From Candidatus Cloacimonadales bacterium (lineage in GTDB: Bacteria; Cloacimonadota; Cloacimonadia; Cloacimonadales; JAFGVF01): DNA of 64,000 bases. The position numbers and the translations under genes were made by a program. Numbering within the stretch: position 1 is the first letter of the stretch; each line of letters starts with the position of its first letter. Below, piece by piece: positions 13,537-52,842 of the stretch. The notes beneath the pieces are model-generated. The model had not been told where the DNA came from, did no database searches, and was given only the letters and a program-made list of their open reading frames with translations. The DNA is taken from assembly GCA_963677495.2 (NCBI GenBank), contig CAXXOU010000001.1, forward strand, positions 192,001 to 256,000, written 5' to 3'.

Positions 13537-14379
13537 TTAAAACTTATAACCGACTGAAAAATGATGTGTGCCATCTAGAGTTGCATGTGAATTATATGCA
13601 TAATCAACGAGAATATTGTACATGTTGATTCCGGCACCAAAACTAATTACATTCGGTTTATTGTGAACACCACCCCTTAAAGTAAGGACTTCATGAGGTG
13701 AAATCTCAAGACCACCCATAATTTGGGTTTCTTCACCAAATTCCTGCTTAAGCTCAACAGATGTAGTCACCTTCTCATATGGTGAATGTGAGAGACCTAC
13801 AGCAAAAACTTGAGGAAGATCACTTTCATTATCTTTACCAATCTTAGGATTGTTTATGTTTGTAACAGAGAAAGCAAGTTTTGTTCTCTGTCTGATGGTA
13901 GCAAGTGCACCCATATTCACACCGAAAGCCATCTGAGTGTCATCAGAGTCAGCAAACTCAAGATTATATAGATTAACACCATAACCGAGTGTAAATTCAG
14001 TGTGTATATCTTTCATTAAAGTGAAACCATGGAAAAGACCCATAGTCTGTTCAGACATAAGTGTCTCATCTTCAAAGTCAACACTAAATGATTGAACACC
14101 GAGTCCGATTGCTCCGGCTTTACCAAAGTTGTAAGACACAGCTCCATTGATAAGAGTGTTATAGCCGGTGTTCCATAAGTCAGTATAGCTGATAATAGCA
14201 GCATTGTCAGCATAAACGAGACCGGCAGGATTATAGAAAACAGCAGTAGCATCATCAGCAACTGAGTAGAAAGCTCCACCCATACCACGAGCTCTTGCAG
14301 ATGCACCGTAATCATCAAAAACAGCATTAAGTGACAGAAGGGAAACGGTAAGTGCTATAATAATAAGTATCTTTTTCAT
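13537..14379 (-). CDS. PorV/PorQ-like (UPF0164/FadL-fold) outer-membrane beta-barrel
   Basis: Signal peptide; SARARGMGGAF...ATAVFYNPAGL N-terminal motif; C-terminal HHFSVGYKF. Confidence 0.8.
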   Translation of the reverse strand: MKKILIIIALTVSLLSLNAVFDDYGASARARGMGGAFYSVADDATAVFYNPAGLVYADNAAIISYTDLWNTGYNTLINGAVSYNFGKAGAIGLGVQSFSVDFEDETLMSEQTMGLFHGFTLMKDIHTEFTLGYGVNLYNLEFADSDDTQMAFGVNMGALATIRQRTKLAFSVTNINNPKIGKDNESDLPQVFAVGLSHSPYEKVTTSVELKQEFGEETQIMGGLEISPHEVLTLRGGVHNKPNVISFGAGINMYNILVDYAYNSHATLDGTHHFSVGYKF

Positions 14380-14388: not shown

Positions 14389-15780
14389 CTATAGCTCTGT
14401 TGATATGACAATCGGTTGAGTAGTTGTTTTCTTTTTACCTGAGTCAAGTTTTATGACTTCAAGATGACATATATACATTCCGGGTGGAAGCATTTCATAA
14501 GATCTGTCCTTCCCGTTCCAAGTTGTGCTTTCAATGCCTAAAGAGCTGATTAGCTTTTCATTTAAGATAGTGTTTTCAAGCTGACCTTTAGAGTTATAAA
14601 TACTGATTATAACTTTGCAGTTAGTATTACCTTTCACTTCAGCACCGTACGCAATAGTAATCATCTCTTCTTTTGGATTGAAGATGTTTTTATCGCTATC
14701 AGCAGTGTAGATGTTTAAGAAAGGTTTTGATTCAGAATAAGGTACACTCACAAGGGAGTTAAAAATTCTGAAAGCATCTTCTTCATTATACATAAAAGAG
14801 TCGAAGATAAGTTCTGATTGCCCAAACTCTTTTGCAGTAGCTTCAAGAGTAATCAACAAACTATTGTCATCATCAACGATTAGATAATCATCAAAGTTGC
14901 ATTCAACTTTAACAGTATTCCCATCAACATGTGTGAACGTAACTTCTCCATCATACTCATCTGTCATTGAATCATCAAGACTATAACCATCAATAGAGAT
15001 AATTGCTGAATCATAAGAGAGCTCGAAGCTGTAAGACTCAACTTCTTCAGTATCTTCAACAGTATATGTTCTAACTGGGATATCGAAACTACCTGTACCA
15101 TCAACATTAATCTGTGGGATGTTGATACTTGGCTGTTCTATATCAGCTGAAGTTCTTGGACAAATTCTGAAGTAACTATAAGAATACTGAACAACACCTG
15201 TAATAGCAGTAAATTGATCTCCTGCTTGAGGATTAAGTTCATTATATGTAAAGAAGCCATCCATTACATATATTGAAGCACCGGAAGTATCAGTGATTTT
15301 GAAATCTCCATAGCTATCCACAGGGTTTGAGCATGTAGGAGCAATTATTTTTACAAGAACACCTTCCCATTGTTCTGCATCAGCACCAGTAAGGTCTGAA
15401 CATGTAATAACAGCAGGTTCAGGAAGTGGATTACCACTTGATTCTACAGTTGCACTAGAGACCTGACTCATTTCTGTAAGTTCATAATACTCTACAACAT
15501 CAGCAGTAACTACAACAGAGTCACCTAATGCTGGGAATGTACTGTAATCATAAACATAAACACCACTCCATGGTCCACCTTCTCTATCAGAAATAAAGTA
15601 TTTTTCATCATCAAATTCAATAGCTGTTACTATACCACCAACAGATACAGTTTGTCCGGAGTAAGGAGAGTTTCCATTTGCTTGATCAGTATACTGAATG
15701 TCGTACACGGATAATACTTCTGCAAAAAGCATGCTAGATGCAAGAAGTAACATAATAAATAATATCTTTTTTGTTTTCAT
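14389..15780 (-). CDS. Secreted protein with tandem OB-fold-like domains, a cohesin-like domain and a variant FlgD-Ig CTD
   Basis: SVYDIQY...SPYSGQTVSVGGIVTA and EQWEGVLVKI; FDIPVRT...YSFELSYD; FNPKEE...IYNSKGQL...WNGKD...PPGMYI. Confidence 0.75.
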   Translation of the reverse strand: MKTKKILFIMLLLASSMLFAEVLSVYDIQYTDQANGNSPYSGQTVSVGGIVTAIEFDDEKYFISDREGGPWSGVYVYDYSTFPALGDSVVVTADVVEYYELTEMSQVSSATVESSGNPLPEPAVITCSDLTGADAEQWEGVLVKIIAPTCSNPVDSYGDFKITDTSGASIYVMDGFFTYNELNPQAGDQFTAITGVVQYSYSYFRICPRTSADIEQPSINIPQINVDGTGSFDIPVRTYTVEDTEEVESYSFELSYDSAIISIDGYSLDDSMTDEYDGEVTFTHVDGNTVKVECNFDDYLIVDDDNSLLITLEATAKEFGQSELIFDSFMYNEEDAFRIFNSLVSVPYSESKPFLNIYTADSDKNIFNPKEEMITIAYGAEVKGNTNCKVIISIYNSKGQLENTILNEKLISSLGIESTTWNGKDRSYEMLPPGMYICHLEVIKLDSGKKKTTTQPIVISTEL

Positions 15781-19166: not shown

Positions 19167-19329
19167 AGCTAACATGCTTTCAGGTTCAACAATTTGGACC
19201 TAAGCTGTCTTTCAGGTTCAGGTTTGTTAAATATCACTTCTCCCTTAGTCTCATACGTGTTTATCAGATCCGCATCCTCTTTTGCGATATTGCAAACTTT
19301 CAGTAGACTATCTATCAAAGCGCAGTCAT

Positions 19330-19422
19330 CCCACTGTTTTCCCACTGTGCACGCACTGTGCACCCAGTGAAACAGTGGGTTCGCAGTGCCTTCACAGTGC
19401 GTGCACAGTGCAAACACAGTGC
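19330..19422. repeat. Opposed 11-bp-period array (CACTG x3, then CAGTG x5)
   Basis: CACTGT at 19332, 19343, 19354; CAGTG at 19373, 19384, 19395, 19406, 19417. Confidence 0.9.
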
Positions 19423-19704
19423 GTTGGTGGATAGAGCAGTAAAAGAGAGTAAAAAGGGCAATAAATATAGCTAAGTTATTGCAATAGGCACTGTGTGTGT
19501 CAATTTCGGACTTGCGTTGCAGCGATAGCGTGACGCGAGAACGAAATCAGGAACATGCGACTTCGGAGTGCATTTTAAGAAGTACGTTTTCCTTTCAGTC
19601 TGACAAACTCCCTGAAATGCAGTAAGTCATTGCTAAAGACACTGTCTGGAAATGCAAAAGAGCCCGACCTGATGGTAGGGCTCAAATGTATCTAAATGAT
19701 TAGA

Positions 19705-21984
19705 TTATTTAACCATTATCATTTTTTGAGTTTCAGTTCTGTTTCCACTTGTCATTTTGTAGAAATAGATACCGCTAGTAGTCTGCTGACCATTGTTGTC
19801 TTCACCATTCCATACAATTGAATGTTCGCCGGCAGCTTTATGCTCGTTAACAAGAGTTTTAACAAGCTGGCCTTTAACATTGTATACGCTAACGTTAACG
19901 TTGCCATTAACAGGAGCATTGTATTTGATAGTTGTAGTTGGGTTGAATGGGTTAGGATAGTTACCCTGAAGCATAGCTTTTGAAGGAGCAACTTCAACAA
20001 CTTCGTTGTCAGTAGGGTTAACAGTAAAGTCAATAGCAGAAAGGACTAATTTACCAGGACCTGCTTGACCTTCAGCTTGAGTTGAACAACCCCAAACATC
20101 ATCATCATGGAAATAGAAGAATAAACGGTAAGTTTCGTTATTCTGATCATCTTCACCGAGGAAGAGAAGTTCTTCTGCTGGGTAAGCAAACATTGGAGTC
20201 ATACCATCCCAATCTGAGATATAAGCATGCTCAACACCAAAGCCCATGTCATTACCTGATTCATCTAACCAGAAATCGTCTTCAACTGAAACACCACTGA
20301 AAGCGATTGGTTGCTGCCATGTGCTACCATTATCAAGAGATAATGAGATATAGATTTCGTTAGAGTTTTCATAAGGCTGCCAGTATGATAAGTTATCAAC
20401 GTGGAAGTCATTTGCAGGAGTTGAATCATGCCATACCATAGCCATAACACCATTTTCATTAGCATTAGTAATCTTAGTATGTGCAAGATGGAAGAACATA
20501 GCATCATCATGTGAATCATGCTGATAGTGAGGGAAAGGCCAGATTGAATCTAAGCGGATGTTTCCATAACCTTCAACATCTGGAGTAACACCATCATCGA
20601 TACCATCATTAGCTCCGTCATCCCAATACTGGTCAACGTTACCATCATTATCCATATCCCAATGTACAAAGTGTCCGTCACCATTGCTCTTAGGGAATAC
20701 ATCAATAAGTTCCATTGTATTGTTAGCTACATCATAAACGATATCTTTAACAATGTGTAAACCATAGAAGTATGAACCTTCAGGAGTAACAAGACAGTAA
20801 GTAGCAGGCATATGAAGTTTGCCTTCTTCGTCCCAACCTAAAGTGAAGTGACCATTGTTTGTGATTGTGAATTCAAGACCATCATAAGGCGCATCACCAT
20901 TTTCAGTATCAACAAAGTAGTATGAACCATCAGCATTCTGAGGATTAGCAACCGGATAAGAAACGTCAAATGCATTCCAAGTCCAATCAGATGTTGGATT
21001 ACAATAATCATCATGAATGAAAACATCATAAGTCATCTCATCATCAGCTGTATCACCAATATGGTAACCCATATAGATAACTTTACCGGCATTAACACCT
21101 TTACCAACGATGAAACTGAACATAGGACGACGCCATTCGTTAGTATCGATATTCCAAGCATCCATTGTAGGGATAGATGTATAGTTCCAAGTCAATTCAA
21201 GACCGAAATCAACATCATCTTGAGTATAATCAGCATAAGCGATATAAGGGTTCTCAACTGGTGAAGGTTCACCTGTTGTTTCACTAATAACTGAATGAGA
21301 AACTGAGTTTCTACCTAAGATGTAGATACGTTGGTATGTGTCACCAAGTGGTGAAGGACCAACTTGAGTTGAAGGCCAGATGTACTGGTTATCATCAAAA
21401 CCGTTTAATGTAACAGGATTAAGAACAGCATTATATGCATCAGAAGGGATTCCAGGAATACCCGCAAAGTACGGATCCCAACCCATCTTGATATCATATA
21501 CGTCGTCACCATCTGGATCAACGTGCCATGCCATCATCATTTTACCCCAATCATCGACATCCATACTTGAATATCCTTCCCAGGTATCAACAGTTGTGAA
21601 TAAGCCATTATGAGCAACACTACCAGTTCCATCTACGTATGAGTAATAAACACGTCTGTTACCAGAAGCAGAAGGTTTACCCATATAAGTGATGAACATG
21701 CCATCGCCATATGCTCCACCCGGTTGCATTCTGATAGGTGTGTTTGAATATGCACCAGGCATATAATCATAGTAGTTAGGATCAAGTAAATTTTGCTGAG
21801 CATAGTTGTTTGCCCAGTTTACAGTTCTTTCTGTTCTTGATGTTGTGCCAATAGTACTAGCATTACGGCCAGCAATTGAACCATCAAGTCCAATCATCTT
21901 CTGCGTTCTAGCAGGAGTTTGTACTTCTGCAAATAATGCAAAAGCCAATGTTATTAACATAAGTATGGTCAGGGTCTTCTTCAT
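19705..21984 (-). CDS. Secreted acidic protein with FlgD-Ig/T9SS-like CTD; Asp-box-like motif
   Basis: Signal peptide; [18 protein letters not shown]...TSGIYFYKM...QKMIMVK. Confidence 0.85.
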   Translation of the reverse strand: MKKTLTILMLITLAFALFAEVQTPARTQKMIGLDGSIAGRNASTIGTTSRTERTVNWANNYAQQNLLDPNYYDYMPGAYSNTPIRMQPGGAYGDGMFITYMGKPSASGNRRVYYSYVDGTGSVAHNGLFTTVDTWEGYSSMDVDDWGKMMMAWHVDPDGDDVYDIKMGWDPYFAGIPGIPSDAYNAVLNPVTLNGFDDNQYIWPSTQVGPSPLGDTYQRIYILGRNSVSHSVISETTGEPSPVENPYIAYADYTQDDVDFGLELTWNYTSIPTMDAWNIDTNEWRRPMFSFIVGKGVNAGKVIYMGYHIGDTADDEMTYDVFIHDDYCNPTSDWTWNAFDVSYPVANPQNADGSYYFVDTENGDAPYDGLEFTITNNGHFTLGWDEEGKLHMPATYCLVTPEGSYFYGLHIVKDIVYDVANNTMELIDVFPKSNGDGHFVHWDMDNDGNVDQYWDDGANDGIDDGVTPDVEGYGNIRLDSIWPFPHYQHDSHDDAMFFHLAHTKITNANENGVMAMVWHDSTPANDFHVDNLSYWQPYENSNEIYISLSLDNGSTWQQPIAFSGVSVEDDFWLDESGNDMGFGVEHAYISDWDGMTPMFAYPAEELLFLGEDDQNNETYRLFFYFHDDDVWGCSTQAEGQAGPGKLVLSAIDFTVNPTDNEVVEVAPSKAMLQGNYPNPFNPTTTIKYNAPVNGNVNVSVYNVKGQLVKTLVNEHKAAGEHSIVWNGEDNNGQQTTSGIYFYKMTSGNRTETQKMIMVK

Positions 21985-22014
21985 AATTCCTCCATATATT
22001 ACTTATTACTTATT

Positions 22015-23046
22015 TTAGAATTTCATTTTAAGTGAGACTCTATGAGCTCCGTGTACGAAATCTTCTGTTAGATATCCCATATCAGTGTAAGCATAGTCAA
22101 CATGATAAACAGCTAAGTCTGTAGGCAACATAACACCGAAACCTGCAGTGAAACCGTTTGTATCATAATTGAACTGGTAACCACCTCTTAAGAATAAGAC
22201 TGAAATCTTATACTCAAGACCGGCATTCCAAGTTTCACTTCTATCAACAACGTTATCAAGCTGAGCTGAAGCTAAAAGATATGAGTTATCGTTTTTGAAG
22301 AGGTCCATACTTGCTCCAAGTGAGAAGTTAAGAGGAATCTTGTATCCAAGTTCTTCTTTATCTTCATCGATAAGACCGTCATTGTCATTATCAAGCAAGT
22401 CAAAAGGATCCTCATCTTCACTACCATCGCCATCATTATCAACAGTGAATTTTACATCAGGACCAAAGTTTCTGAGTGTCATACCAATCTTAAGATTGTT
22501 CCAGTTAGTATTATAGATTGAGCCAATATCAACAGCATAGCTATTAACACTAATATCTTCATAAAGGTCTTCTCTTAAATACTTAACAGTAACACCAAAG
22601 TTGAACTGGCTAGTCCAAGCTACTGCATATGTTAAACCAACTGAAAGATCGGAAGATCTGAAAGTACGGCCAGTAGGACCAAACTCTTCTTCAGTAGTTT
22701 CATCCATTTCAGACATATGCAAGAATGAACCTGATATAGCAAATGTGCTTATACCACTGTTGTATGATGCTGCAACAAATTCATGATAAATGTCTGCAGG
22801 CCAGTTTGTGTGTGAGTAAAAAGCCTGAGAGCTGGTAGTCATACCAAGTCCTGCAGGATTCCAGAAAACTGAAGAGATATCATCAGTGACAGGAACATAC
22901 GCTTCACCCATACCAATAGCACGAGCATCAACACCAAGTTTCAAAAACTGAAGTGATGCTGTACCAACTTTAGGAAAGATTTCAGCATTAAGAAATACCG
23001 GAACAAAAAGTAAGATTACGATTAAGGTAGTAACTATTCTTTTCAT
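22015..23046 (-). CDS. PorV/PorQ-like (UPF0164) outer-membrane beta-barrel with acidic DxDxDG insert
   Basis: KVGTASLQFLKLGVDARAIGMGEAY...FWNPAGL; HRVSLKMKF C-terminus; DNDGDGSEDEDPFDLLDNDNDGLIDED insert. Confidence 0.85.
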   Translation of the reverse strand: MKRIVTTLIVILLFVPVFLNAEIFPKVGTASLQFLKLGVDARAIGMGEAYVPVTDDISSVFWNPAGLGMTTSSQAFYSHTNWPADIYHEFVAASYNSGISTFAISGSFLHMSEMDETTEEEFGPTGRTFRSSDLSVGLTYAVAWTSQFNFGVTVKYLREDLYEDISVNSYAVDIGSIYNTNWNNLKIGMTLRNFGPDVKFTVDNDGDGSEDEDPFDLLDNDNDGLIDEDKEELGYKIPLNFSLGASMDLFKNDNSYLLASAQLDNVVDRSETWNAGLEYKISVLFLRGGYQFNYDTNGFTAGFGVMLPTDLAVYHVDYAYTDMGYLTEDFVHGAHRVSLKMKF

Positions 23047-23054
23047 CTTTCCTC

Positions 23055-26000
23055 CTATTTAATTATCACGAATTTGCCGACTTTGATATCACCACTTTCT
23101 TTATCTTCTACAGAGAAAAGATAAACTCCACTAGCAATAATCTGGTCATAACGGGATAGGATATCCCATTCGTGCATACCATCTGCAGTAATACCTTGGG
23201 TAGCAGCTTTACTAATAGTAATAATGTCAGCACCATGTGCACCATTATGCTTAATAGTATCTACCAAGTCACCTGCAAGGGTATAAATTCTAATTGTACA
23301 TTTTTTTGGTAAGTTAACGAACCAAAGGCGCTTACTCTTATCACCTTTATCGTCACTCTCTCTTCTACCATCAAACTTAGATGAGCCAAGATATGGGTTT
23401 GGCACAACATAGATGTCATCCATATCCGCTTTAGCTGTGTTTCCAGGGAAAAGAACTTTCATATTAGCATCTGCATCTCTACCAGACTCAAGGTAATCAA
23501 GGTCATTACTTGGGATACCTCTATCAAAGGCTGTTACAGCTGTATAATATTCGATTCCACGTGGAGGGCTAACAATCTGCTGATGATAAAATCTTCTTGA
23601 TAATCTATCCATCATAAGAAGTTCTAATGTTGCGTCAGTAGCACTAGCAAAGATGTTAGGGTTACTTGTTTGTCCGCCATGACCTTCTAATGGAATTAAA
23701 GCATCATCATAAAGCTCATTGTAAACTTCTACAGGGACATTCTCATTCTTAAATAAGAGTGCCTGTGCATTTCTAGCTTCAGCAGTTAACAAACTTGTAC
23801 TGCTGCCAAGATCTTGAGCGATTTGGTCTGCAGTAGCTTGTAAATCTTCTGTCCAGAAAACATCTGGAGCATATAAAGGACTACCGTAAATTACATCATC
23901 AACTTGAACTGGAACAAAACGATAGTATTCATTTAATCTGTAATAACCAAGATCTGTGTCATCAGCAACCTTCTTTTCAGGTAAACCTAAATCATTACCA
24001 CGATAACCGCCGTAGTAGATTGAATCACCTTGGTCTTGGTTAACAACATAGTCAGCCAAATCAACTTCAGTCTCAATTTTATCCCAACGGTTAATCATTT
24101 CCCAGTCTTCCTGAGAACCGCTACCTGAACGACCCCATAATGTGTAACCTTGGAAATCATGTCTAAGTCTATTACCTGTGAAAGGATTAACTTTAGCAGC
24201 AACATTCATGTTGTTCTCTGTCAAACCAAATTCAGCAGGGAATGAACTATCATGATTACCTTGGAAACTATCCCATTGTGGGTTATTGGACTGCCAACCG
24301 ATAAGAGCAGTACTTACTGTTTTTGTATCAACAGTATACTCAGATCTATTATCCCAATAGATGTCAATTATCTTACCATCGTCAACGATGTCAGCATACA
24401 TTTTAGGAATTGTTGGTGGCTCTGGTGGATTATAATGTGGGAAGGTATCAGGTAAGACAACAGTAGTCAAATCCTGTGCTTGACCATAGATATCTTTTGC
24501 CCAACGAGCTGAACGCTTAAGGTCAGGTAAATTATCTCCAGGGAATACAGCAACAACAATTTTCATTGTCTTTGATGGCGCAAGATTCCAACGTTTAGTC
24601 TCATCATTATAATCAGATGAACCCGGTTGAGCACCATAGAATGCAAACAAGAAACGAGTATCAGCTGCATTTGGTTGTTCAAACTCAGTTATTGTAGGAT
24701 CATCATTTTTTCTTAAGTCAAGAATGTCTGGGTTAGATGCAGGCTTTTTACCTGTAAGAAGATAATACTTTTCATTATAAGTTTCAGCACTACCTATCTG
24801 CAATGGATCAGTGTCATCCGGACCTTCACCAACAGCCCAATACCAACATGAGAACTCAAGAGTATCAGGGTCAGGAGTACATACACGAGCACCAACTAAA
24901 CCATCAACAAGACCATCATCACCATCATCATCTCTAGTATAAGCAAACTCATATCCACGACCTTTTACATAACCGGAAAGGTCATCTTGAGCTTTTTCAG
25001 AGCCATAACTCTGAGGACCAACGTCTGAGTCCATATAGATGCCCATTGCACAATCGTACAATGTGTCCTGACCCATATTGGTAACGTCAAATTCAACATA
25101 TACTAGGTTTTTAATATATTCATAACTCCACTGATATGACATCTGTCTTACTCTAATATTCAATGGTACGTGGTTATTACCACCCTTTGAACCACCCCAG
25201 TCTCTGTTAACTGAAGTACCGAAAGGACTATAGTCATAATAATATGAAATGAAATCCTGTTCTGAAACAGGGGCACCATCTTCATCAATGTAGTTATCGT
25301 TATCATCATTTACAGGACCGGCAAAATTGTAATCAAGATCACCGTAAGCAAAATCTTCACCTGAGTCACTAAGATCCATAAATCCGAGTGGGAACCAGAT
25401 TTCAAAGTTTCTACCTTCTGTAATTTTACCAATGTCTTCAGCTGTAAGACTAGCAAGATAATCCTCACTCATATTAGAGAATACAGAAGGCAATTCTGAG
25501 TCATCTCTAAACTTGAAAGTGTATCCTGGGAAATCTTCATCTACAAGTCCATCACCATCATCATCAACTCCACGACGGTTTCTTCTGATTGAAGAAGTAA
25601 TAATCTCATCTGATGGATTGTTACCTTCAAAATATGGAGCAACTTCATCAGATGAAGATTCTAATGGATTATAAGCAGGTAAGAATTCATAAAGGTCTGC
25701 ATCACCATCAAAACCAACTGAGACAAGTGTGTCGATTACAGCGTGTAAGCCTGGATTCCAATCCGGACTATCCTCTGTAACTGTATCATTATTTTCAGGT
25801 GTTGGTGGGAAAGTCTTCCAATAAAGCTTTTCACCAGCCTGATCTCTTCTTTGCTTCTTAGCACCAAACCATAAAGCACCTTGATAAAGGTAGTCAGCAC
25901 CACTACCACCTGGATATTCAAGTGACGGATACTGTGGTTGAATATCATCACCGGAGCCAAAGAAACCGTAGTTACTTACTCTCAGCCAAATATTACCAAC

Positions 26001-26126
26001 ATTATGATATTGGGTTAAATCAAATTTCTTTCCTGATGTTGAATTTACAGCCATTCTTGCACCAAGTGCTAAGAGAACTGTAAGAAGTAATAAAACCAGG
26101 AAAACCTTTCTATAGTTATAGTTCAT
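23055..26126 (-). CDS. Large secreted acidic protein with DxDxDG motifs and variant CTD
   Basis: Signal peptide; HNVGNIWLRVSNYGFFG...EYPGGSG; DDDGDGLVDED; C-terminal VVPNPY...FVNLPKKCTIRIYTLAGDLV...ASGVYLF...GKFVIIK. Confidence 0.85.
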   Translation of the reverse strand: MNYNYRKVFLVLLLLTVLLALGARMAVNSTSGKKFDLTQYHNVGNIWLRVSNYGFFGSGDDIQPQYPSLEYPGGSGADYLYQGALWFGAKKQRRDQAGEKLYWKTFPPTPENNDTVTEDSPDWNPGLHAVIDTLVSVGFDGDADLYEFLPAYNPLESSSDEVAPYFEGNNPSDEIITSSIRRNRRGVDDDGDGLVDEDFPGYTFKFRDDSELPSVFSNMSEDYLASLTAEDIGKITEGRNFEIWFPLGFMDLSDSGEDFAYGDLDYNFAGPVNDDNDNYIDEDGAPVSEQDFISYYYDYSPFGTSVNRDWGGSKGGNNHVPLNIRVRQMSYQWSYEYIKNLVYVEFDVTNMGQDTLYDCAMGIYMDSDVGPQSYGSEKAQDDLSGYVKGRGYEFAYTRDDDGDDGLVDGLVGARVCTPDPDTLEFSCWYWAVGEGPDDTDPLQIGSAETYNEKYYLLTGKKPASNPDILDLRKNDDPTITEFEQPNAADTRFLFAFYGAQPGSSDYNDETKRWNLAPSKTMKIVVAVFPGDNLPDLKRSARWAKDIYGQAQDLTTVVLPDTFPHYNPPEPPTIPKMYADIVDDGKIIDIYWDNRSEYTVDTKTVSTALIGWQSNNPQWDSFQGNHDSSFPAEFGLTENNMNVAAKVNPFTGNRLRHDFQGYTLWGRSGSGSQEDWEMINRWDKIETEVDLADYVVNQDQGDSIYYGGYRGNDLGLPEKKVADDTDLGYYRLNEYYRFVPVQVDDVIYGSPLYAPDVFWTEDLQATADQIAQDLGSSTSLLTAEARNAQALLFKNENVPVEVYNELYDDALIPLEGHGGQTSNPNIFASATDATLELLMMDRLSRRFYHQQIVSPPRGIEYYTAVTAFDRGIPSNDLDYLESGRDADANMKVLFPGNTAKADMDDIYVVPNPYLGSSKFDGRRESDDKGDKSKRLWFVNLPKKCTIRIYTLAGDLVDTIKHNGAHGADIITISKAATQGITADGMHEWDILSRYDQIIASGVYLFSVEDKESGDIKVGKFVIIK

Positions 26127-26144
26127 TAGTTATCCTCCAATAGA

Positions 26145-26789
26145 TCAAAACGCGAATGTTACAGGGAACTGAACCCAACATGCAACTGGTTGTCCACCGC
26201 TTTTAGCAGGCTGGAAAGTCCATTTTTTTACTGCTTTAACAGCAGCTTCATCTAAACCACCCATACCGGGTTGTAGTGACTCAAGTACTTCAACAGCACC
26301 AACTGAGCCATCTTCTAATACTTCAACATCAAGAAGTACATCACCCTGGATACCGGATTTCTTAGCGAAATCTGAATACTCAGGTAATACTGAAGTCAAT
26401 ACCTCTGGTGGATCCTCATAAGCAACGAACTTAGGAGTTTCACCATGCTTGCCTCTTGGGGCTTCAACTATGTCTTGAGGATCCAATGAGGTGCTTTCGA
26501 TAGTATCAATTTCAATTATGTCTTCATTTTCATCACTATCAAGATCAGTATCATCGATAATGATTTCCAGATCAACTTTAGCCTGCTCTGGTGGTTTAAT
26601 CTTTTCCCTGATCTCAGGTGGGATTTCTATTGCTTCAACGTGTTTTACTTCACGTTTTTTTACCTTTATCTCGAACTTAGGTGTGGTCATTACTGCGAAT
26701 AGCATAATGATTATAGAAAGGCTTAAAGCTTTCTCAAAATAGGAGTTTGCAACATCTTTCCAATCCTGGATTCTTTCTGTTTTACTCAT
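26145..26789 (-). CDS. tonB: Energy transducer TonB (ATG 26789 preferred to GTG 26798)
   Basis: N-terminal TM helix; PEYSDFAKKSGIQGDV...LDEAAVKAVKKWTFQPA TonB_C domain. Confidence 0.92.
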   Translation of the reverse strand: MSKTERIQDWKDVANSYFEKALSLSIIIMLFAVMTTPKFEIKVKKREVKHVEAIEIPPEIREKIKPPEQAKVDLEIIIDDTDLDSDENEDIIEIDTIESTSLDPQDIVEAPRGKHGETPKFVAYEDPPEVLTSVLPEYSDFAKKSGIQGDVLLDVEVLEDGSVGAVEVLESLQPGMGGLDEAAVKAVKKWTFQPAKSGGQPVACWVQFPVTFAF

Positions 26790-26798
26790 CTCACTCAC

Positions 26799-27203
26799 CT
26801 ACCTTTTCAACCTTGCTTCAAAGTATACGCGAAGAGCATCAGCTTTTTGTAGCTGCTTTAAAACGTCTGACATCACACCAAAACGTGTGTGCTTATCTGT
26901 TCTAAAACAGAAAAGAGAGTTGTAGTCCAAAGCTAACTTGCTTAACATTATATATTCTATGCTTTCTAATGGAATAAGCAAATCATCAATTGATACATTC
27001 TCATTTTTATCTACATAAATAGTCACAGCATGATTACGTGGAATCTTCTCAATAGCGTATGCTTTTGGAAGTTCAACGTTCAAGCCTTTTTCTTTCACGA
27101 ACACTGTTGAAACCATGAAGAACAGTAACAGAAGGAAGGAGATGTCTGACATTGAAGCTGTCGGTATTGAAACTTTAGCTCTTTTCTTTCTAAGTAAGGC
27201 CAT
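26799..27203 (-). CDS. exbD: Biopolymer transporter ExbD/TolR
   Basis: IPTASMSDISFLLLLFFMVST; RTDK. Confidence 0.92.
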   Translation of the reverse strand: MALLRKKRAKVSIPTASMSDISFLLLLFFMVSTVFVKEKGLNVELPKAYAIEKIPRNHAVTIYVDKNENVSIDDLLIPLESIEYIMLSKLALDYNSLFCFRTDKHTRFGVMSDVLKQLQKADALRVYFEARLKR

Positions 27204-27214
27204 CTTTTCTCCTT

Positions 27215-27622
27215 TTAGTTAGTTGAAAGCGAAATTTTTTCAGCACCAGCTCTTTGAATTCTATCAAGAACAAGTACCATATTATCATATTTCGCGTTTC
27301 TGTCTGTTTTTAGAGAAACAACCATATCAGGGTTCTCTCTAACAGTTTTCTGAACTCTGTCTTCAAGCTGGTCAATGTCAACAATCTCATCGTTTAGGTG
27401 AATCTCACCTTCACCGTCGACAAAAACCTTGGTTAAATTATCTTGTTTAAGTTTCACCTTCTTTGTATCTTCTTTAGAAGCTGCAGGTAAAACTATACCA
27501 AGACCTTTCTTAATATCGAATGTAGTAGTTGAAAGGAAGAACACCAGCAAAAGGAAAGAAATATCTGACATAGAAGCTGTTGGTATTTCAACTTCTGCCT
27601 TCCTTTTACGGTCAAAACTCAT
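27215..27622 (-). CDS. exbD: Biopolymer transporter ExbD/TolR
   Basis: IPTASMSDISFLLLVFFLSTT; KTDRNAKYDNMVLVLD. Confidence 0.92.
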   Translation of the reverse strand: MSFDRKRKAEVEIPTASMSDISFLLLVFFLSTTTFDIKKGLGIVLPAASKEDTKKVKLKQDNLTKVFVDGEGEIHLNDEIVDIDQLEDRVQKTVRENPDMVVSLKTDRNAKYDNMVLVLDRIQRAGAEKISLSTN

Positions 27623-28447
27623 TTATTCCCCCTTCTTTTCGATAAGCTTTTCAACTACTTTTTCTGTTGCACGCTGCATATCAATCACAAGGTTATCAAC
27701 CATACCGGTGAAGATATTGTAGAAGAACTGTACCGGAATAGAGATAGCCAAACCAGCAGCAGAAGTAATAAGAGCGATCTTAATACCACCGGCAACAATA
27801 GTTGGTTCAACTTCACCGGCTTTTTCAATCGCATCGAAAGCAGCAATCATACCAACAAGTGTACCGAAGAAACCGAACATTGGTGCAAGGGTAATAGTTG
27901 TTGATAACTCTGTGAAACCTTTTTCAAGGTAAGACATCTCAATCACACCGGCATTTTCAATAGCTTTTTCTACAGCTTCAAGCCCTCTATCAGCTTTAAG
28001 CAATCCGGCATAAATAACAGCAGCAACTGGACCGCGAGTTTTCTTTGCAAACTCAACTGCATCTTTGTACTGACCTTTTTCGATAAGAGGAAGAATTTTC
28101 TCCAAAAATTCGGAAACGTTTACTTTAGCATAGCTGATAGCAATCATTTTCCAGATAATGTAAGCAAGACCCCAAATTGTTAGGGCAAGAAGTGGCCACA
28201 TTGTGAATCCACCCTTTACAAAGATATCTACGAATCCACTACCAAGAACTTTCTTTGCGAATTCTTGTAATCCACCACCTTGGGTAGCAGCCTCTGTTTC
28301 CATTGCATCGGGTTGTGCAACATCTGCACTTTCCACTTCCTGACTCATTGTAGGATCGGTAGCATCTGCTTGAGCAAAAGCTATACTTGTGAAGGTTAAA
28401 CTCATCACAATAACCATAAGTACGGTTAAGACAAGATTCCTTTTCAT
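27623..28447 (-). CDS. exbB: MotA/TolQ/ExbB proton channel with signal peptide
   Basis: APMFGFFGTLVGMIAAF; VAGGIKIALITSAAGLAISIP. Confidence 0.93.
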   Translation of the reverse strand: MKRNLVLTVLMVIVMSLTFTSIAFAQADATDPTMSQEVESADVAQPDAMETEAATQGGGLQEFAKKVLGSGFVDIFVKGGFTMWPLLALTIWGLAYIIWKMIAISYAKVNVSEFLEKILPLIEKGQYKDAVEFAKKTRGPVAAVIYAGLLKADRGLEAVEKAIENAGVIEMSYLEKGFTELSTTITLAPMFGFFGTLVGMIAAFDAIEKAGEVEPTIVAGGIKIALITSAAGLAISIPVQFFYNIFTGMVDNLVIDMQRATEKVVEKLIEKKGE

Positions 28448-28473
28448 TCTTCTCTATCCTCCTTAGTATTTAT

Positions 28474-31400
28474 TTAAAAATTAAAGGCTACGCCAACCGT
28501 AACTCTTCTTTCATTATTTTCGTATGATGGGTTGTTTACTACAGATTCACGTACAAACTGATCTTCAGGTACAACATAGCCCTCATTCGTTGTTATAGCG
28601 TCGTTGCTTCCATCCCAGTTTGGATTTCCTGTTTTTGGATATACGTAGCTGATATTATTATATTTGAACAGATTTGAGATATCACAATAAGCTCTGAGTT
28701 TAAATCTCTTTCCAAATGCCCAGCCTTTTGTGATTCTTAAATTTGTATTCATTGTTGGTTCCATTCTCTCACTATTTGTATCAAGTGTTTCATCGTTCTC
28801 TGATACTGGAGTGTAAGGTCTGGCTGTAGTGAAGTTCGCACTGAAGTTAGTTGAGAAATCACTGAATGGTAAAATCCATGATGTACCAGGTATGATAAAT
28901 TCTTCACCACGGTCAATTCTGAAAGTAAGGTTCAACTTCACATCGTGTCTTACATCCCAATCAAGTGGGAATTCACGGTAGTTAGTATTGTAATCTTGTA
29001 TTACTGTAGCTGAGCTATTACCTTCTGCCCATGCTAAACTATAAGCAACTGAACCGGTCCAGAAGTTAGACATAAACTTAGTTAAACTTAAGTCAATACC
29101 TCTAGCACTACCATAGTCCTGAGAGATATACTCATACCAGTAAACCTGTTCCTGATCTTCCTGTGTTTTCTTTTCAGTTGATACATAATTATAGATATTC
29201 TTATAATATGTAGTAACATCAAGTACGTAGTCTTCACTAACCTGGTGAGTAAGACCAACTTCATAAGTCACAGTAATCTGTGGCTCAAGTTTTGGGTTAC
29301 CAACTGTGATACCAGCATTATCATTTGCATCATCAGGAGTTCTACTTGTGAAGATATATGCCATAGGAGGTAACTGGTTTTGGTAGTTGTAAGCAAATCT
29401 CAACACGTCTCTTTCTGAGATAGGATGAGAAACACCTAATCTAGGAGAAAGCATCAACTGATGCAGATCTGACTCATCAAAACCAAGATCATCTACAAAA
29501 TCAACATCTTCATAAGTACCATCATCAAGAAGCTTTTCATAACCTTGGCCAAGATACCAATAGTCAAGACGAAGACCTAAGTTTACGATCATTCCTTCCC
29601 ATTCCATTCTATCTTGTAAGTAGTATGCACCTTGAAGTGGATTTGCTTTATAACCATTACTAACACCTGATCCTGCTTGTGCAGCAGAGTAGTAGTCGTC
29701 TGGTTTATAAACAAAAATGTAGTCATTAGCAACAACGCCTGTTGTATCAATCTGTTCAACATGAGCAAGCTGGTCAGGAATTGAAGCCATATCAGCAGTG
29801 TCATCTAAATCTATATATGAACTTGTATCATAAACATTTTTGAGATAATCTTCCATTCTAGTATTGCTTATAGAAAGGAAACCACCTAATTGATCTTTAT
29901 TAATATCATGCTGTATAAACTCTAAACCGGTTTTAGCTTGATGAATATCATTAATCATATATTCAAAGTCAGCTTTGAAACTTGCAGTTGTAGTTTCATC
30001 ATTTATGAATGTATCAGCAATAGTACCTGGATAAGTATAAGGTATACTTCCGGATGTATCCATACCTGTTAATGGATACTCATAAACCCACTCTTCATAT
30101 GATGGGAAACCGGCCATAATGTTACCGGTCTGTGCAATTGTGTCCCAACCTGCTCCAATATCACCGATAACGTAATTACTGAAAACATCATCTACATATG
30201 CATCAAGTGCTTCCTGATCTACAGTTCCATCAGCATTGTAAATATCAGAGTTATTTGTTGTTTGATAAATATATGAATCTCTATCTACACCTTTAGGTGC
30301 ATAATCTGTAGTTTTATTATAATAACTAGCTTTGATCTTAAGATTCATCTGTGGGTTGAATACTTGGTCAAAGTTAACAACATACTGTCTTTGGTTGACT
30401 TCACTCTGTCCATTATGCTGAAGTGCATATTGATCACCATGACTGTATGAATCGTTTACTTCTCTATCACCACGAACAGCTAAAGTAACTTTTGTTCTTG
30501 GTGTAATCTGATACTTGGTTTTAAAGTTCAGATTATAGCTATTATAATTTCTCTGACCTGTCTCTGTCCAAAGGAAATCTTCTCTGTTTTCATATGGATC
30601 ATATTCATCATAGTCATACTCTAAAAGAGGAGTGCCATTAAGGATGAAGTCATCGTTAGGATCACTTTTCCAGTTATCTTTAAATCTTCCATCAGTCCAT
30701 TGACCACTTCCATTTAAGAAGAAAGTAAGATTATTCCTTAATTTTCCAAATCCATAACCAAGAACCGGACCACCAATAGCAAAACGTAATAAATCAAAGT
30801 TACTGTTTTCATCTATAATAAGATGATCAGTTGAATACTCAATTTTACCACTATAATTTCTGCTACCACTTTTAGTAACAATTGAAACGATACCAGACTG
30901 TGCATTACCAAATTCAGCAGTAAAACCACCGGTCATAACATTCATATCTGCAATAGCATCTGTATCAACAGATAAAGCTGCACCACCGTCAACTGGGTCA
31001 GAAACTGACATACCGTCAACTGAGTAAACTACCTCACCGGTACGTCCACCACGAACACGTACACCATCTCCTGAAACTGAGATACCGGCAATGTTTCCAA
31101 GAATGTCAGAAACATCATCGACAGCCTGTTCACTAAGATTATCAACTTCGATTCTCTTTTGAGAACCAACCTGTTTTGTGTCCACTTTGTCTTTTACGGC
31201 TTTAATTGTTACACCTTCGATTTTCACGGATGATTTAACCAGTTTTGCATTCTGTGTACTAACAGAACCTGCGTTAATTCTAATTCCTTCGATTGTAACA
31301 GTGTGGAAACTCATTTTTGATACACGTGCATCATAAACACCCGGAGGGATGTTAATAATTTTACATGTACCGTTTTTCTTAGTCATTCCACCAATTTGGG

Positions 31401-31557
31401 TGATTGCACCATCTTTAAATAGAACTATGTTCACATAAGATAACGCTTCTCCATCCTCGGTCTTAACTTTAACAGCTAGGGTACCTGTTTCTTGTGCAAC
31501 CAAAGATAAACTTCCAAAAAGCAAAACAAAGAACAATATTGAAGCTATCTTTCGCAT
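28474..31557 (-). CDS. TonB-dependent receptor-like outer-membrane barrel (carboxypeptidase-regulatory-like N-domain, plug, barrel)
   Basis: VRGGRTGEVVYSVDGM...TGGFTAEFGNAQSGIVSIVTKSG plug; SPRLGVSHPI; GNPKLEPQ; terminal Phe. Confidence 0.92.
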   Translation of the reverse strand: MRKIASILFFVLLFGSLSLVAQETGTLAVKVKTEDGEALSYVNIVLFKDGAITQIGGMTKKNGTCKIINIPPGVYDARVSKMSFHTVTIEGIRINAGSVSTQNAKLVKSSVKIEGVTIKAVKDKVDTKQVGSQKRIEVDNLSEQAVDDVSDILGNIAGISVSGDGVRVRGGRTGEVVYSVDGMSVSDPVDGGAALSVDTDAIADMNVMTGGFTAEFGNAQSGIVSIVTKSGSRNYSGKIEYSTDHLIIDENSNFDLLRFAIGGPVLGYGFGKLRNNLTFFLNGSGQWTDGRFKDNWKSDPNDDFILNGTPLLEYDYDEYDPYENREDFLWTETGQRNYNSYNLNFKTKYQITPRTKVTLAVRGDREVNDSYSHGDQYALQHNGQSEVNQRQYVVNFDQVFNPQMNLKIKASYYNKTTDYAPKGVDRDSYIYQTTNNSDIYNADGTVDQEALDAYVDDVFSNYVIGDIGAGWDTIAQTGNIMAGFPSYEEWVYEYPLTGMDTSGSIPYTYPGTIADTFINDETTTASFKADFEYMINDIHQAKTGLEFIQHDINKDQLGGFLSISNTRMEDYLKNVYDTSSYIDLDDTADMASIPDQLAHVEQIDTTGVVANDYIFVYKPDDYYSAAQAGSGVSNGYKANPLQGAYYLQDRMEWEGMIVNLGLRLDYWYLGQGYEKLLDDGTYEDVDFVDDLGFDESDLHQLMLSPRLGVSHPISERDVLRFAYNYQNQLPPMAYIFTSRTPDDANDNAGITVGNPKLEPQITVTYEVGLTHQVSEDYVLDVTTYYKNIYNYVSTEKKTQEDQEQVYWYEYISQDYGSARGIDLSLTKFMSNFWTGSVAYSLAWAEGNSSATVIQDYNTNYREFPLDWDVRHDVKLNLTFRIDRGEEFIIPGTSWILPFSDFSTNFSANFTTARPYTPVSENDETLDTNSERMEPTMNTNLRITKGWAFGKRFKLRAYCDISNLFKYNNISYVYPKTGNPNWDGSNDAITTNEGYVVPEDQFVRESVVNNPSYENNERRVTVGVAFNF

Positions 31558-31670: not shown

Positions 31671-32492
31671 TTATTTACGGAAATTCCAGCTGTCTGTACC
31701 ATATTTACTCTCTGTTAATTCTTCCATTAGCTTTCTCTCATATTCACTGATTCCTGATTCAATTACGAATTCATCTGAACTCCATTGCTCCTGAAATCCT
31801 TGAACTAATTTTTCCGTTACTTCCTCGTAAGAATAATTGTTAATCTGTGCTTGATTAATCGAAATTGTCTTTCTCTGCAAGAATCTGGCCAACTTCTCTT
31901 TCTTCTCCGTTTCCAGTCCGGGTACTAACCATGCAACTTCTGCCTGGTTTTCATGAAGAAGGATTGAGCCATGTTGTAATAGCATATCTCCCTTTCGAAC
32001 TTGAGCACTCCCTACTATTTTCTTTCCAAGACACTTTAGTTCATATCTAGAAGTACTTGTAAAGCAGGGATTAGCATTCACTCTCTGCTCTGAAGCAGTA
32101 AGCTCACCTTTCTCAAATTCGATCGGTACACCAAGGTTCTTTAAACCTGTAGCTAATGCTTTACTGATCTCCGCGTAAGTATCAGTTATTCCTCCCTCAA
32201 ATTTCTCAATCGAAGGAGTTATAACAGCATACGTTACTTCGTTTTTGTGCAGAACAACTCTACCACCGGTTGGTCTTCGCACAAATCCATAACCCCGACT
32301 TTCCAGTTCACCGAGGTCAATCTCATCCAATGCTCTTTGGTTAAAACCGCACGACACTGTCGCCGGTTCCCAATCATAAAAACGTATTGTAGGTAAACTC
32401 TCCCCCGCCTCAATAGCCATCATGATTGCTTCATCAATAGCCATGTTTTCGGCTGAGTTAAATCTACCGTGGACTATAACTCTCCACTTCAT
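31671..32492 (-). CDS. Lipoate-protein ligase A family / LipM-like octanoyltransferase
   Basis: NMAIDEA, VRRPTGGRVVLH, CF, KKIVGSAQ, LQHGSI. Confidence 0.9.
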   Translation of the reverse strand: MKWRVIVHGRFNSAENMAIDEAIMMAIEAGESLPTIRFYDWEPATVSCGFNQRALDEIDLGELESRGYGFVRRPTGGRVVLHKNEVTYAVITPSIEKFEGGITDTYAEISKALATGLKNLGVPIEFEKGELTASEQRVNANPCFTSTSRYELKCLGKKIVGSAQVRKGDMLLQHGSILLHENQAEVAWLVPGLETEKKEKLARFLQRKTISINQAQINNYSYEEVTEKLVQGFQEQWSSDEFVIESGISEYERKLMEELTESKYGTDSWNFRK

Positions 32493-36832: not shown

Positions 36833-36938
36833 TATTGTCTCCTCTAATGATAATTTTTTTTACATTTTTAACTCCACATTTTTTGTCAACACTAACAGTG
36901 TTTTTTATACTATATAGTGTAATTATTGAGATCCTCAC

Positions 36939-36974
36939 CAGACCTGCACCGTGGCGAAGTATGGGGCGGGAATG
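36939..36974 (+). repeat. REP half-copy at the 3' end of the RAYT gene
   Basis: cagacctgcaccgtggcgaagtatggggcgggaatg matches the first half of the repeats at 37633 and 39475. Confidence 0.85.
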
Positions 36975-50358: not shown

Positions 50359-52842
50359 CTATTCAGCAGGTACATCATTCATTAATGACTGGTAAATAGT
50401 ATCAATAAGTTGGAATACAGGTTTAGTTGTATCGAACTCAAGTTCAACAATATCTTCATCGTCATTAGTATCTATCTGACTTTCCATATAAGATAATGGG
50501 AAACCAAACATATAGGCTTGACCACCGGCAGTTACATTAGTTTTGAATGCAACTGTCTGCAGATTATACTGTTCATACTCGTCCGGTGTTGGTGGTCTGT
50601 TATCATCATAAACAGACTTACAATTGTACATAGCAATTGAGTTTTCAGTTCCTTCTGCGATTGGGAAATATGTTACAGGACCAATACCGGCAAATCTATC
50701 AACATAAGTACTGAAAGCTATATCTTCATCTACTTCTAAATTAACAGTTGTATCCTGCATATAACTACTGGAAATTTGAGCACCAATGAAGTATGGATTA
50801 GCTGCAGCGTTAGTAGTAACAGAAGCTGTGTAAAGATCTATTGGGGCTTCAAGTGAATTTGTGAACCCAAAAATTCTTTCGAAGAAAGTTTTCTCTTCTG
50901 TGAAACTATTTCTGATAGCTGAATCAATATTTGCTCCACCACTAAAGAGTATGTTACCACCACTCATCATATAAAGAGCAAGACCATCGTTTTCAGCTAC
51001 AAGAGCAGTTGGTGCACCTGGAGAATCAGCATGATAAACAACTAACTTATATTGATTAAGATCAGTTGGAGATATTCTTCTGCCAATATAGTCCATATTG
51101 TTTTCAAGATCTTGAAGATCAAGATTATCAACAGTAGCAACATTCTCAAAAGCTGTATTATAGAAATCATCAGTGAACTGTTCAGGGCTCAAGAAAGCTT
51201 GTTGATCACTTGGATGGTCATCATCAATAATAAGAACACCATCTTTCTGGTCAGTAGGGATAGGTTCCTGAACGATGAATTCAAGAACAGCTGGAGTTTT
51301 GTCTGCCTCACCCTGAAGGTCAACAGCTCTAACTTCAAACTTATGGTAACCATAATCAAGACCTGTAACAACAACGCTTTGAGCGATATCGTTGTCAGCA
51401 GGTACTCTTAACCAAGTTTCACCTGCGTAGTCACCACTTTCATCAGTAACAGTACTTTCAGCAAGTGGAGGATAGTTGTAAGCTGCTCCGTCTAAACGTA
51501 AGTCATAATATTCAACAGAAGAGAAGTAGTTCTCATCAGTTTCTTCGTCTAAAAGGATATTAAGAGCACTATCATAAGGATTATCAGTAACAACTTCCTC
51601 AGAAGTAGATTCGTTTCTATAACCATATTGGCCATGGTAACCCCAGCGTAACCAGAGTTTCAAATCACTAGATCCAAGACAAGCATAGAAACCATCTTTA
51701 TTTTTGAAGAGTGCAGTTGCATAGCGACCTTCCACGATTGGAGGATCTTCTTCAAGCTCTTTATAGCGATAATCAGTGAAATGGTTTTCACCAATAGCAT
51801 ATGTTCTTTCAGGATAAATCATAGTCTGCGCATGATAACCTTCGCGAACAGCAAAACGGATTATCTTATCTTCTGACTGAATACCGGCCATATCAACAGA
51901 ACGGGCTACAACCTCAGTATAAGAAACCTGAAGTGAGTTTTCAAAGTCTGATGAGATTGAAGGTTCAGTATATTTTGTAAGTAAGAACTCAGAAATACCT
52001 TCCATATTACCATGGTCTTTTGTACTATACCATGTGCTATCAGCAGGAAGAGTTTCTATAATTGCTTGTGTAGAAGCATTTCTTTTTAAAACTTTAAACA
52101 TATAGTAGTCAGCTTCAGCTTCAACGAACGGATCGCTATCGTTAATACTGAAATCCAAAACGATACCTGTACCAACACTTGAAAGTTCACGAGCGTTGAA
52201 AGGATCTGGAGCATTAAGAGCACCTTTAGCAAGTTTTAAAAGACAAGTAGGTTTTTCAGACATAGCTTTATATTTTTTGTTAGCAATATCTGAAATAGCT
52301 CCTCTGTTATCCATACAGATAACTTCTAAAGTTGTAATTCTCTCTAATGGGTTTCCATCAGCATCAGCAGATGGTAAGTTAAGAGTAACATACTTCTGGT
52401 CTGACCAGATTGTTTTACTCTCATTTGGTGCATCAGCAAGTGATGTTTCTTGTAAAGCACCTTCTTTAAAATGAACTACCCAACCACCACCATGAAGATC
52501 TTTAACATCATCAGGTACGATTGCATTTTCTGTATCAACTACAGAGTTACCAGGAGTACTGATAGGATCACCGTTCTCATCAAGTATACGATAAGCATAA
52601 GATACAACTGTACCATCCTTATCCACTGCATGCCAATAAACACGCTGCCTTGAATAAACAACTAAACTATCAGGATATTCTGCATTATCAACTGAAACAT
52701 CAGTTCCTTCGTAAGATGTGATTGAGATTTCAGGAATCTCATTTGCAGTTCTTTCACCATCTACACCACATCCATAAAAAAGAAAAGAAACTACTAATGT
52801 CAAAAGCAACATAGTAACCAATTTGTTACCTGCTTTTTTCAT
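50359..52842 (-). CDS. Large acidic lipoprotein of unknown function (Ig/FN3-like repeats); start revised to ATG 52842
   Basis: GGGAGG RBS; MKKAGNKLVTMLLLTLVVSFLFYG|C lipobox; recurring EVxxxDxxG strands (EVICMDNRG, ARSVDMAG, FEVRAVDLQG). Confidence 0.85.
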   Translation of the reverse strand: MKKAGNKLVTMLLLTLVVSFLFYGCGVDGERTANEIPEISITSYEGTDVSVDNAEYPDSLVVYSRQRVYWHAVDKDGTVVSYAYRILDENGDPISTPGNSVVDTENAIVPDDVKDLHGGGWVVHFKEGALQETSLADAPNESKTIWSDQKYVTLNLPSADADGNPLERITTLEVICMDNRGAISDIANKKYKAMSEKPTCLLKLAKGALNAPDPFNARELSSVGTGIVLDFSINDSDPFVEAEADYYMFKVLKRNASTQAIIETLPADSTWYSTKDHGNMEGISEFLLTKYTEPSISSDFENSLQVSYTEVVARSVDMAGIQSEDKIIRFAVREGYHAQTMIYPERTYAIGENHFTDYRYKELEEDPPIVEGRYATALFKNKDGFYACLGSSDLKLWLRWGYHGQYGYRNESTSEEVVTDNPYDSALNILLDEETDENYFSSVEYYDLRLDGAAYNYPPLAESTVTDESGDYAGETWLRVPADNDIAQSVVVTGLDYGYHKFEVRAVDLQGEADKTPAVLEFIVQEPIPTDQKDGVLIIDDDHPSDQQAFLSPEQFTDDFYNTAFENVATVDNLDLQDLENNMDYIGRRISPTDLNQYKLVVYHADSPGAPTALVAENDGLALYMMSGGNILFSGGANIDSAIRNSFTEEKTFFERIFGFTNSLEAPIDLYTASVTTNAAANPYFIGAQISSSYMQDTTVNLEVDEDIAFSTYVDRFAGIGPVTYFPIAEGTENSIAMYNCKSVYDDNRPPTPDEYEQYNLQTVAFKTNVTAGGQAYMFGFPLSYMESQIDTNDDEDIVELEFDTTKPVFQLIDTIYQSLMNDVPAE

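Follow-up and report, generated by a model that had tools for sequence, protein, structure and literature searches.

The closest described counterparts of the locus reported here are, for import, the SusC/SusD and RagAB utilisomes and BtuB-BtuG of Bacteroidota and, for export, the system for type IX secretion (T9SS). According to the accessible parts of the respective reports, the T9SS protein SprA forms a laterally gated barrel of 36 strands, energy is required in F. johnsoniae to pull PorV and its cargo out of SprA (PMC10994853), and retention of uncleaved C-terminal domains (CTDs) by cognate PorV-like barrels has been proposed for PorZ/PorQ and for type B cargo (PMC10202324). A T9SS is possibly present in Cloacimonadota according to one report (PMC11285876), and the accessible text of a study of Antarctic Cloacimonadota notes CTD proteins and does not mention TonB (PMC8542988). 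Here we describe an eight-gene operon in a 64-kb stretch of DNA from Candidatus Cloacimonadales bacterium (contig CAXXOU010000001.1, positions 192,001 to 256,000, hereafter the window), in which the gene of a TonB-dependent transporter and a Ton motor are joined to those of a PorV/PorQ-family barrel and two CTD proteins, one of them a protein of 1023 residues that we refer to as X. The genes for transporter, X and barrel travel together across many lineages, and we propose that their products may constitute an importer with a surface partner held by the barrel.

The eight open reading frames (positions 19705-31557, minus strand) are co-oriented and tightly packed, with intergenic gaps of 26, 0, 11, 0, 18, 8 and 30 nt and a purine-rich stretch resembling a ribosome-binding site ahead of the gene starts; the first gene, encoding the transporter, begins with an ATG at 31557, and an in-frame TTG lies one codon further upstream (31560). 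The eight-gene operon is real, as had been described in a reading made from the sequence alone (the sequence-only reading: co-oriented genes with gaps of about 30 nt or less), and Pfam, NF033709 and TIGR04183 profiles confirm the identities proposed there for the receptor, ExbB, both ExbD proteins, TonB, the PorV-like barrel and the 759-residue CTD protein (Table 1). The same reading held that the operon lacks a SusD-like lipoprotein, glycoside hydrolase (GH), ABC importer and regulator, and none of the eight proteins matches a corresponding model at cut-off. The genome is Cloacimonadota-type, in that the named matches among the 120 best X and 120 best receptor homologues all come from this phylum; in one genome, X and receptor homologues (locus tags CVU50_02450 and CVU50_02475) lie five genes apart, as in the window operon. 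Chance adjacency can be rejected because nine of ten orthologous loci keep the order receptor-exbB-exbD-tonB-X-porV (both exbD genes being called in eight); the tenth, L074, begins inside X and has no PorV gene downstream. In locus L080 (9887-14063), frameshifts interrupt both the X and the PorV gene and a call for the first ExbD is missing, which is probably an assembly error. An orthologue of the 759-residue protein follows porV in seven of nine Cloacimonadota-type loci; from its one Asp-box-like motif a propeller fold can be guessed, and Atlas searches with its body and with X returned unnamed clusters only. The hairpin that closes the operon was not picked up by a consensus terminator scan, and a promoter scan of the window remained at background (36 against 44.8 expected). 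Immediately upstream of the transporter gene there is a lipoate-protein ligase-like gene both in the window (31671-32492) and in the unrelated locus L079 (4744-5580), possibly by coincidence.

Across lineages of the Fibrobacteres-Chlorobi-Bacteroidetes (FCB) group the linkage of the X family is conserved. A first, diverse X alignment was too variable for genome scanning; loci were found with one 9-residue motif (at least 602 matches), and the best 80 of 568 confirmed loci were kept. This is a biased sample, as the motif recurs in similar form in only 24 of 110 distant X matches, and locus neighbours were annotated by cluster representative rather than exhaustively. The 80 loci are labelled Cloacimonadota, KSB1, Gemmatimonadota, Marinimicrobia/Fidelibacterota, Eisenbacteria, Ignavibacteria, Calditrichota, Zixibacteria, Delongbacteria and Bacteroidota, the remainder being unlabelled or bearing three odd, unconfirmed labels. 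On the strand of X, 58 of the 80 encode the transporter, 57 a PorV-family protein and 52 both. Among the 38 loci that are fully flanked, with 8 kb or more to either side of X, the corresponding counts are 34, 33 and 33, or 34, 31 and 31 within 8 kb of X; at the same score thresholds, none of these 38 has a transporter or PorV-family gene on the opposite strand. Trees were compared for 48 complete triads (47 loci and the window; truncated, split and incomplete loci were excluded, and for repeated X the copy adjacent to PorV was taken). Of 32 supported splits in the transporter tree, 28 recur in the X tree and 28 in the PorV tree; pairwise distances agree with a Mantel rho of 0.60-0.69, and transporter length follows X length (rho 0.68), both statistics ignoring kinship. 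The congruent trees and distances imply that the module was inherited and duplicated as a unit, contact between the proteins being a separate matter. Paralogous X loci occur twice in each of four genomes, tandem X copies are found in L024, L045 and L078, and a plasmid search returned a single X locus besides an unrelated PorV locus. Within Cloacimonadota, a strict single copy is not established, since the prefix K0B87 of one metagenome-assembled genome appears twice among the X matches.

In its model, the transporter is a TonB-dependent transporter of the usual kind, with 22 strands, a plug and a TonB box. Its AlphaFold2 (AF2) model, built from 150 sequences (predicted local distance difference test score, pLDDT, 88.5), shows an N-terminal extension, a plug, 22 long barrel strands (as counted from DSSP) and large loops, and its best structural matches are ordinary importers, with BtuB aligning over 524 residues (Z 34.5, root-mean-square deviation (rmsd) 2.4); this standard barrel led us to reject an enlarged one. 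Pfam profiles recover CarboxypepD_reg, Plug (PF07715, 31.7 bits against a cut-off of 23.9) and OMP_b-brl_3, and the C-terminal residue is Phe. A V-x-V/I-x-A pattern, which we take to be the TonB box, is present in 136 of 150 aligned relatives and at about residues 114-120 of the window protein. The matches listed include 119 relatives at 46-80% identity, the named ones from Cloacimonadota. By profile comparison the transporter is not of the SusC/RagA family: it does not match TIGR04056 (SusC) at E<=0.05, and two relatives score about 71 bits on this model against a cut-off of 368. Sequence searches of the PDB with single X or transporter sequences gave nothing useful. Adjoining the transporter gene is a complete set of ExbB, two ExbD and TonB; both ExbD proteins have the transmembrane Asp, and the window TonB is without the transmembrane His known from E. 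coli TonB. ExbB occurs in 10 of the 80 loci and 6 of the 38 fully flanked ones; the ten comprise nine of Cloacimonadota type and the Eisenbacteria locus L057, which runs transporter, X, PorV, GWxTD protein, ExbB, ExbD, ExbD, TonB. Judged by these occurrences, the motor genes and the gene for the 759-residue protein are accessory to the module. GWxTD-family proteins lie near it in five of the 80 loci (L004, L007, L030, L057 and L064).

X is modelled with high confidence (AF2, pLDDT 90) as a signal peptide, a beta-supersandwich (residues ~33-550, with insertions), a Pro-rich linker, an FN3-like sandwich split by a helical insertion and a CTD (~900-1023). The supersandwich aligns with the N-terminal domains of GH15/GH94-type proteins (Z 19.4, rmsd 3.3, 263 residues), and the model contains no catalytic (alpha/alpha)6 barrel. 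The variant CTD that the sequence-only reading had recognised is supported by homology of the C-terminus to the standard CTD (hhalign probability 97.7%, two insertions), and the top Foldseek match of this domain of X is PorZ (5m11, E 9e-6); on sequence and model the domain is type-A-like and PorZ-like. X as a PorZ orthologue was rejected, as it scores 22.7 against a cut-off of 260 on the PorZ model NF052228, and this over the CTD only. X as a SusD was likewise rejected, given its beta-rich model with a CTD and the lack of a SusD model match among the operon proteins; SusD-like and propeller structures did not appear near the top of its fold-search lists, an absence that excludes neither. By profile, X is a member of a large unnamed family: a profile of 76 orthologues matches 3203 clusters at E<=0.001. 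Most of 149 further proteins listed have the same layout with the variant CTD, and about 25 combine the core with a standard CTD. To the latter kind belongs a sister group of Cloacimonadota X (P0127-P0159), whose members keep the supersandwich core and end in a standard CTD, which suggests that this domain also exists in released versions. Across the family, polar residues are conserved (97 aligned rows: D298 100%, N52 97%, H319 88%, E147 86%). Acidic DxDxDG-type insertions, probably calcium-binding, occur in X, the PorV-family barrel and the 759-residue protein.

The barrel encoded next to X is, by profile, a member of the PorV/PorQ family and not a PorV equivalog: it stays below the equivalog cut-offs (85 against 220 for PorQ, 72.7 against 250 for PorV, NF033710), its profile matches F. 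johnsoniae PorV (6h3i_F, E 4e-29), and all 54 triad barrels match the family model NF033709. Five window proteins reach the cut-off of TIGR04183 (type A CTD). Profile scans of the window gave no match for the GldKN ring, the GldLM motor or the PorU sortase; SprA was not seen there in a search that lacked a SprA query; and neither a gld gene nor a gene of sprA's size was noticed among the 80 loci, whose neighbours are partially annotated. In the accessible part of one survey, in which the coverage of Cloacimonadota was not readable, Chlorobiota is the sole SprA-less phylum among the FCB phyla surveyed (PMC12611786). A possibly associated CTD-like protein of 463 residues is encoded 3.9 kb downstream of the operon; its family, with OB-fold-like repeats in some members, occurs in 29 of the 80 X loci and adjoins X in many other lineages.

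Clustering of the locus proteins further revealed an unannotated lipoprotein family, Y, in 40 of the 80 X loci and 25 of the 38 fully flanked ones. It is absent from the Cloacimonadota operons; in the window, a Y gene lies 19 kb from the operon and is the only significant match of the Y profile among 115 segments. The matches listed contain 90 relatives, the named ones mostly from Cloacimonadota, and the window protein is conserved across this phylum. Y is predicted to have a pair of Ig/PKD-like domains and, at the C-terminus, an alpha/beta domain; its Ig matches are weak, as are the IFT52-like ones of the alpha/beta domain, and no Pfam family reaches cut-off. The idea that Y is a SusD was rejected, as none of 38 Y proteins matches a SusD model. 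Just downstream of the terminator-like hairpin of the Y gene, six tandem copies of a 123-bp unit (49576-50310, 96% identity) show no Rfam match.

The gene neighbourhoods place relatives of the module in sugar-, peptide- and peptidoglycan-degradation loci. L050 is a classic utilisation locus with LacI, a LamG-CTD protein (lectin), Y, X, GH2-CTD, GH43-CTD, transporter and PorV; L063 encodes a GH63-like CTD protein, L013, L029 and L044 contain peptidases S41 and M19, other X loci adjoin a GH106 enzyme or exonuclease-endonuclease-phosphatase proteins, and an R. marinus plasmid carries the succession transporter-X-PorV-amidase-serine hydrolase. The window operon, like many of the X loci, is surrounded by housekeeping genes alone.

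We favour, at a probability of roughly 55%, a nutrient importer that depends on TonB and has a surface apparatus other than SusD, in which T9SS-exported X is retained by its own PorV-family barrel and Y is a lipoprotein accessory. X would pass the inner membrane by the Sec route and the outer one through a T9SS translocon encoded elsewhere, and its variant CTD would stay uncleaved and bound to the adjacent barrel, as PorZ on PorQ. Barrel, X and Y would sit beside the transporter, with X capturing or capping an oligomeric substrate at the loop face, which is SusD's job in Bacteroidota, and TonB would pull the plug to admit the substrate, likely peptides or oligosaccharides that the cell's numerous CTD proteins set free. 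That the operon includes the motor genes is probably due to its holding the main transporter of the lineage. Models and profiles indicate a plugged 22-strand transporter, a Ton set, a PorV-family barrel and a supersandwich-CTD protein X whose genes travel together; physical contacts among transporter, X, barrel and Y are what we infer from this. A complex prediction with a stand-in pair from L044 (plug-less barrel and trimmed X core) scored 0.00, which is evidence neither way. The sequence-only reading had offered two options, an importer with a CTD 'lid' held by PorV and an alternative export route through a receptor-fold barrel. The former gains from the canonical plugged transporter, the FCB-wide module and the relatives in degradation loci such as the LacI/GH2/GH43 locus L050; the latter has become unlikely, the barrel not being enlarged, X itself having a CTD and the Ton motor genes being confined to 6 of the 38 fully flanked loci.

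Several observations weigh against the importer. X stands with neither transporter nor PorV in four of the 38 fully flanked loci (L008, L009, L025 and L046), agreement of the trees is also expected from plain linkage and shared descent, and many relatives in other lineages have no catabolic neighbours (for example L057, L064 and L072). In the window operon and its Cloacimonadota orthologues hydrolases and regulators are absent, and these orthologues lie among housekeeping genes and are strongly conserved (56-84% identity in X), as for an envelope machine. The last two points equally suit the proposal that CTD secretion or surface assembly draws its energy from transporter and Ton motor: TonB would pull on the plugged barrel, and this, together with X and the barrel of the PorV family, would extract carrier and cargo from the SprA translocon; the Ton motor would then replace GldLM in FCB lineages outside Bacteroidota that lack it, and the operon would be the missing energiser of a T9SS variant. 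The energy demand of PorV-cargo extraction in F. johnsoniae (PMC10994853, accessible part), the inclusion of the whole motor in the operon, the same motor set behind the Eisenbacteria triad in L057 and the five window proteins above the TIGR04183 cut-off speak for this proposal, which we nevertheless hold to be unlikely: ExbB is rare among the fully flanked loci, paralogous modules in degradation loci ill fit a general energiser, in the partially annotated loci no gene the size of sprA and no gld gene was noticed, and the window barrel is a family member rather than the PorV equivalog. That the receptor-fold barrel itself serves as export pore in place of SprA is highly improbable in our view, even though barrel, motor, PorV-family carrier and CTD proteins are co-located and SprA was not seen in the window. 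The local cargo amounts to 50-120 kDa, and because SprA is a laterally gated barrel of 36 strands, a standard 22-strand plugged transporter is a poor candidate for exporting folded proteins of this size, and its barrel is too small to let out folded ones of 80-150 kDa; the survey that singles out Chlorobiota as SprA-less, with its unreadable Cloacimonadota coverage, points the same way.

Import could also proceed without a lid, X being a PorV-anchored surface enzyme or binding protein that works near the transporter without a stable complex, the genes being linked by shared substrate and regulation. The supersandwich fold is common to N-terminal domains of glycoside phosphorylases and hydrolases and to aldose epimerases, the family-wide polar residues would fit such a role, and the proteins P0127-P0159 indicate that the core can work in other settings. 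X is, on the other hand, retained in loci with different apparent substrates (sugars, peptides, peptidoglycan), and therefore a structural partner suits better than an enzyme; the missing catalytic barrel and the co-varying lengths of transporter and X also argue against this version, which we regard as rather unlikely.

Table 1. Features of the operon and associated genes in the window (coordinates in window positions).
Feature	Coordinates	Strand	Evidence
TonB-dependent transporter, 1027 aa: signal peptide, CarboxypepD_reg-like N-terminal extension, TonB box, plug, barrel	28474..31557	-	Pfam, AF2
ExbB (MotA/TolQ/ExbB proton channel)	27623..28447	-	PF01618, 92.8 bits
ExbD 1	27215..27622	-	PF02472, 93.8 bits
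ExbD 2	26799..27203	-	PF02472, 63.9 bits
TonB, 217 aa	26145..26798	-	PF03544 (TonB_C), 69.4 bits
X, 1023 aa	23055..26126	-	no Pfam match; AF2 model and CTD homology
PorV/PorQ-family barrel, 343 aa	22015..23046	-	NF033709, 196 bits (cut-off 90)
759-aa protein with standard type A CTD, accessory	19705..21984	-	TIGR04183, 46 bits (cut-off 23)
Terminator-like hairpin and U run closing the operon	19656..19683	-	fold -18.8 kcal/mol, z = -4.2, 0/200 shuffles equally stable
463-aa CTD-like protein, possibly associated	14389..15780	-	clustering of locus proteins
Second PorV/PorQ-family barrel, directly after the 463-aa protein	13537..14379	-	NF033709, 79 bits, below cut-off 90
Y, 826-aa lipoprotein, lipobox-like FYG-C	50359..52839	-	Y profile from 36 locus proteins, E 2e-40

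Elsewhere in the window, the minus strand of 1-10693 encodes three large surface proteins in which cohesin, dockerin, beta-helix, cadherin and FN3 domains occur; two of the three have CTDs, and they all resemble cellulosome-like proteins reported in Cloacimonadota in the accessible part of PMC8542988. At 36938-39578, a fragment of a REP-associated tyrosine transposase (37000-37407) lies among repeated 51-52 bp elements that flank an FG-GAP CTD gene, intergenic repeats with an 11-bp period are found at 19327-19426, 49470-49511 and 62471-62521, the first forming a 43-bp inverted repeat, and a 6S RNA (55386-55558, minus strand) is located upstream of the RNase Y gene.

The combination of transporter, CTD protein and PorV-family barrel has apparently not yet been described as a module; we found no description in the full-text literature, a coverage that leaves out most subscription papers. 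If the importer is correct, it would represent a four-part outer-membrane module of transporter, PorV-anchored CTD protein, PorV-family barrel and lipoprotein in many mostly uncultured FCB lineages, and would offer an explanation for polymer feeding without SusD in these organisms. It would assign a role to PorV/PorQ paralogues and to two large families that lack annotation, provide a marker for utilisation loci that SusC/SusD-based searches would miss, and be an instance in which T9SS cargo forms part of an importer. With Rhodothermus marinus there is a cultured carrier in which the module is testable.

With the T9SS (SprA, GldKLMN, PorV, PorU) the window locus shares type A CTD cargo and a PorV-family barrel; it differs in encoding no translocon, ring, GldLM or sortase, its motor being ExbB/ExbD/TonB. 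As in PorZ-PorQ and the pairs of type B CTD proteins with PorP/SprF, a CTD protein is encoded beside its cognate PorV-like barrel, and the CTD of X resembles that of PorZ; unlike PorZ, X has a supersandwich and FN3 body and scores low on the PorZ model, and its pairing with the barrel is linked to a TonB-dependent transporter. An R. marinus alginate locus (PMC9530828, accessible part) is alike by annotation only: a TonB receptor, a T9SS type A protein, a PorV/PorQ protein and an unknown protein of 465 residues, which has been called Y-sized, precede lyases, the triplet having been left as hypothetical by the authors; no lyase adjoins the genes of the window operon. The likeness to SusC/SusD, RagAB utilisomes and BtuB-BtuG lies in the plugged 22-strand transporter with an N-terminal extension, in co-encoded surface partners and in relatives of the module inside polysaccharide and peptide utilisation loci. 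In contrast to SusC/SusD utilisomes, the module has no SusD and its transporter is not of the SusC family; its main partner is not a lipoprotein but a CTD protein that has a barrel of its own as anchor, and its lipoprotein Y is an unrelated Ig and alpha/beta protein. Co-located degradative enzymes and a regulator are absent from the window operon and present in relatives such as L050. As we would cautiously put it, the module probably works like a SusC/SusD utilisome, yet differs from one in both defining proteins, and would with slightly better than even chances represent a lidded TonB-dependent import built from undescribed families.

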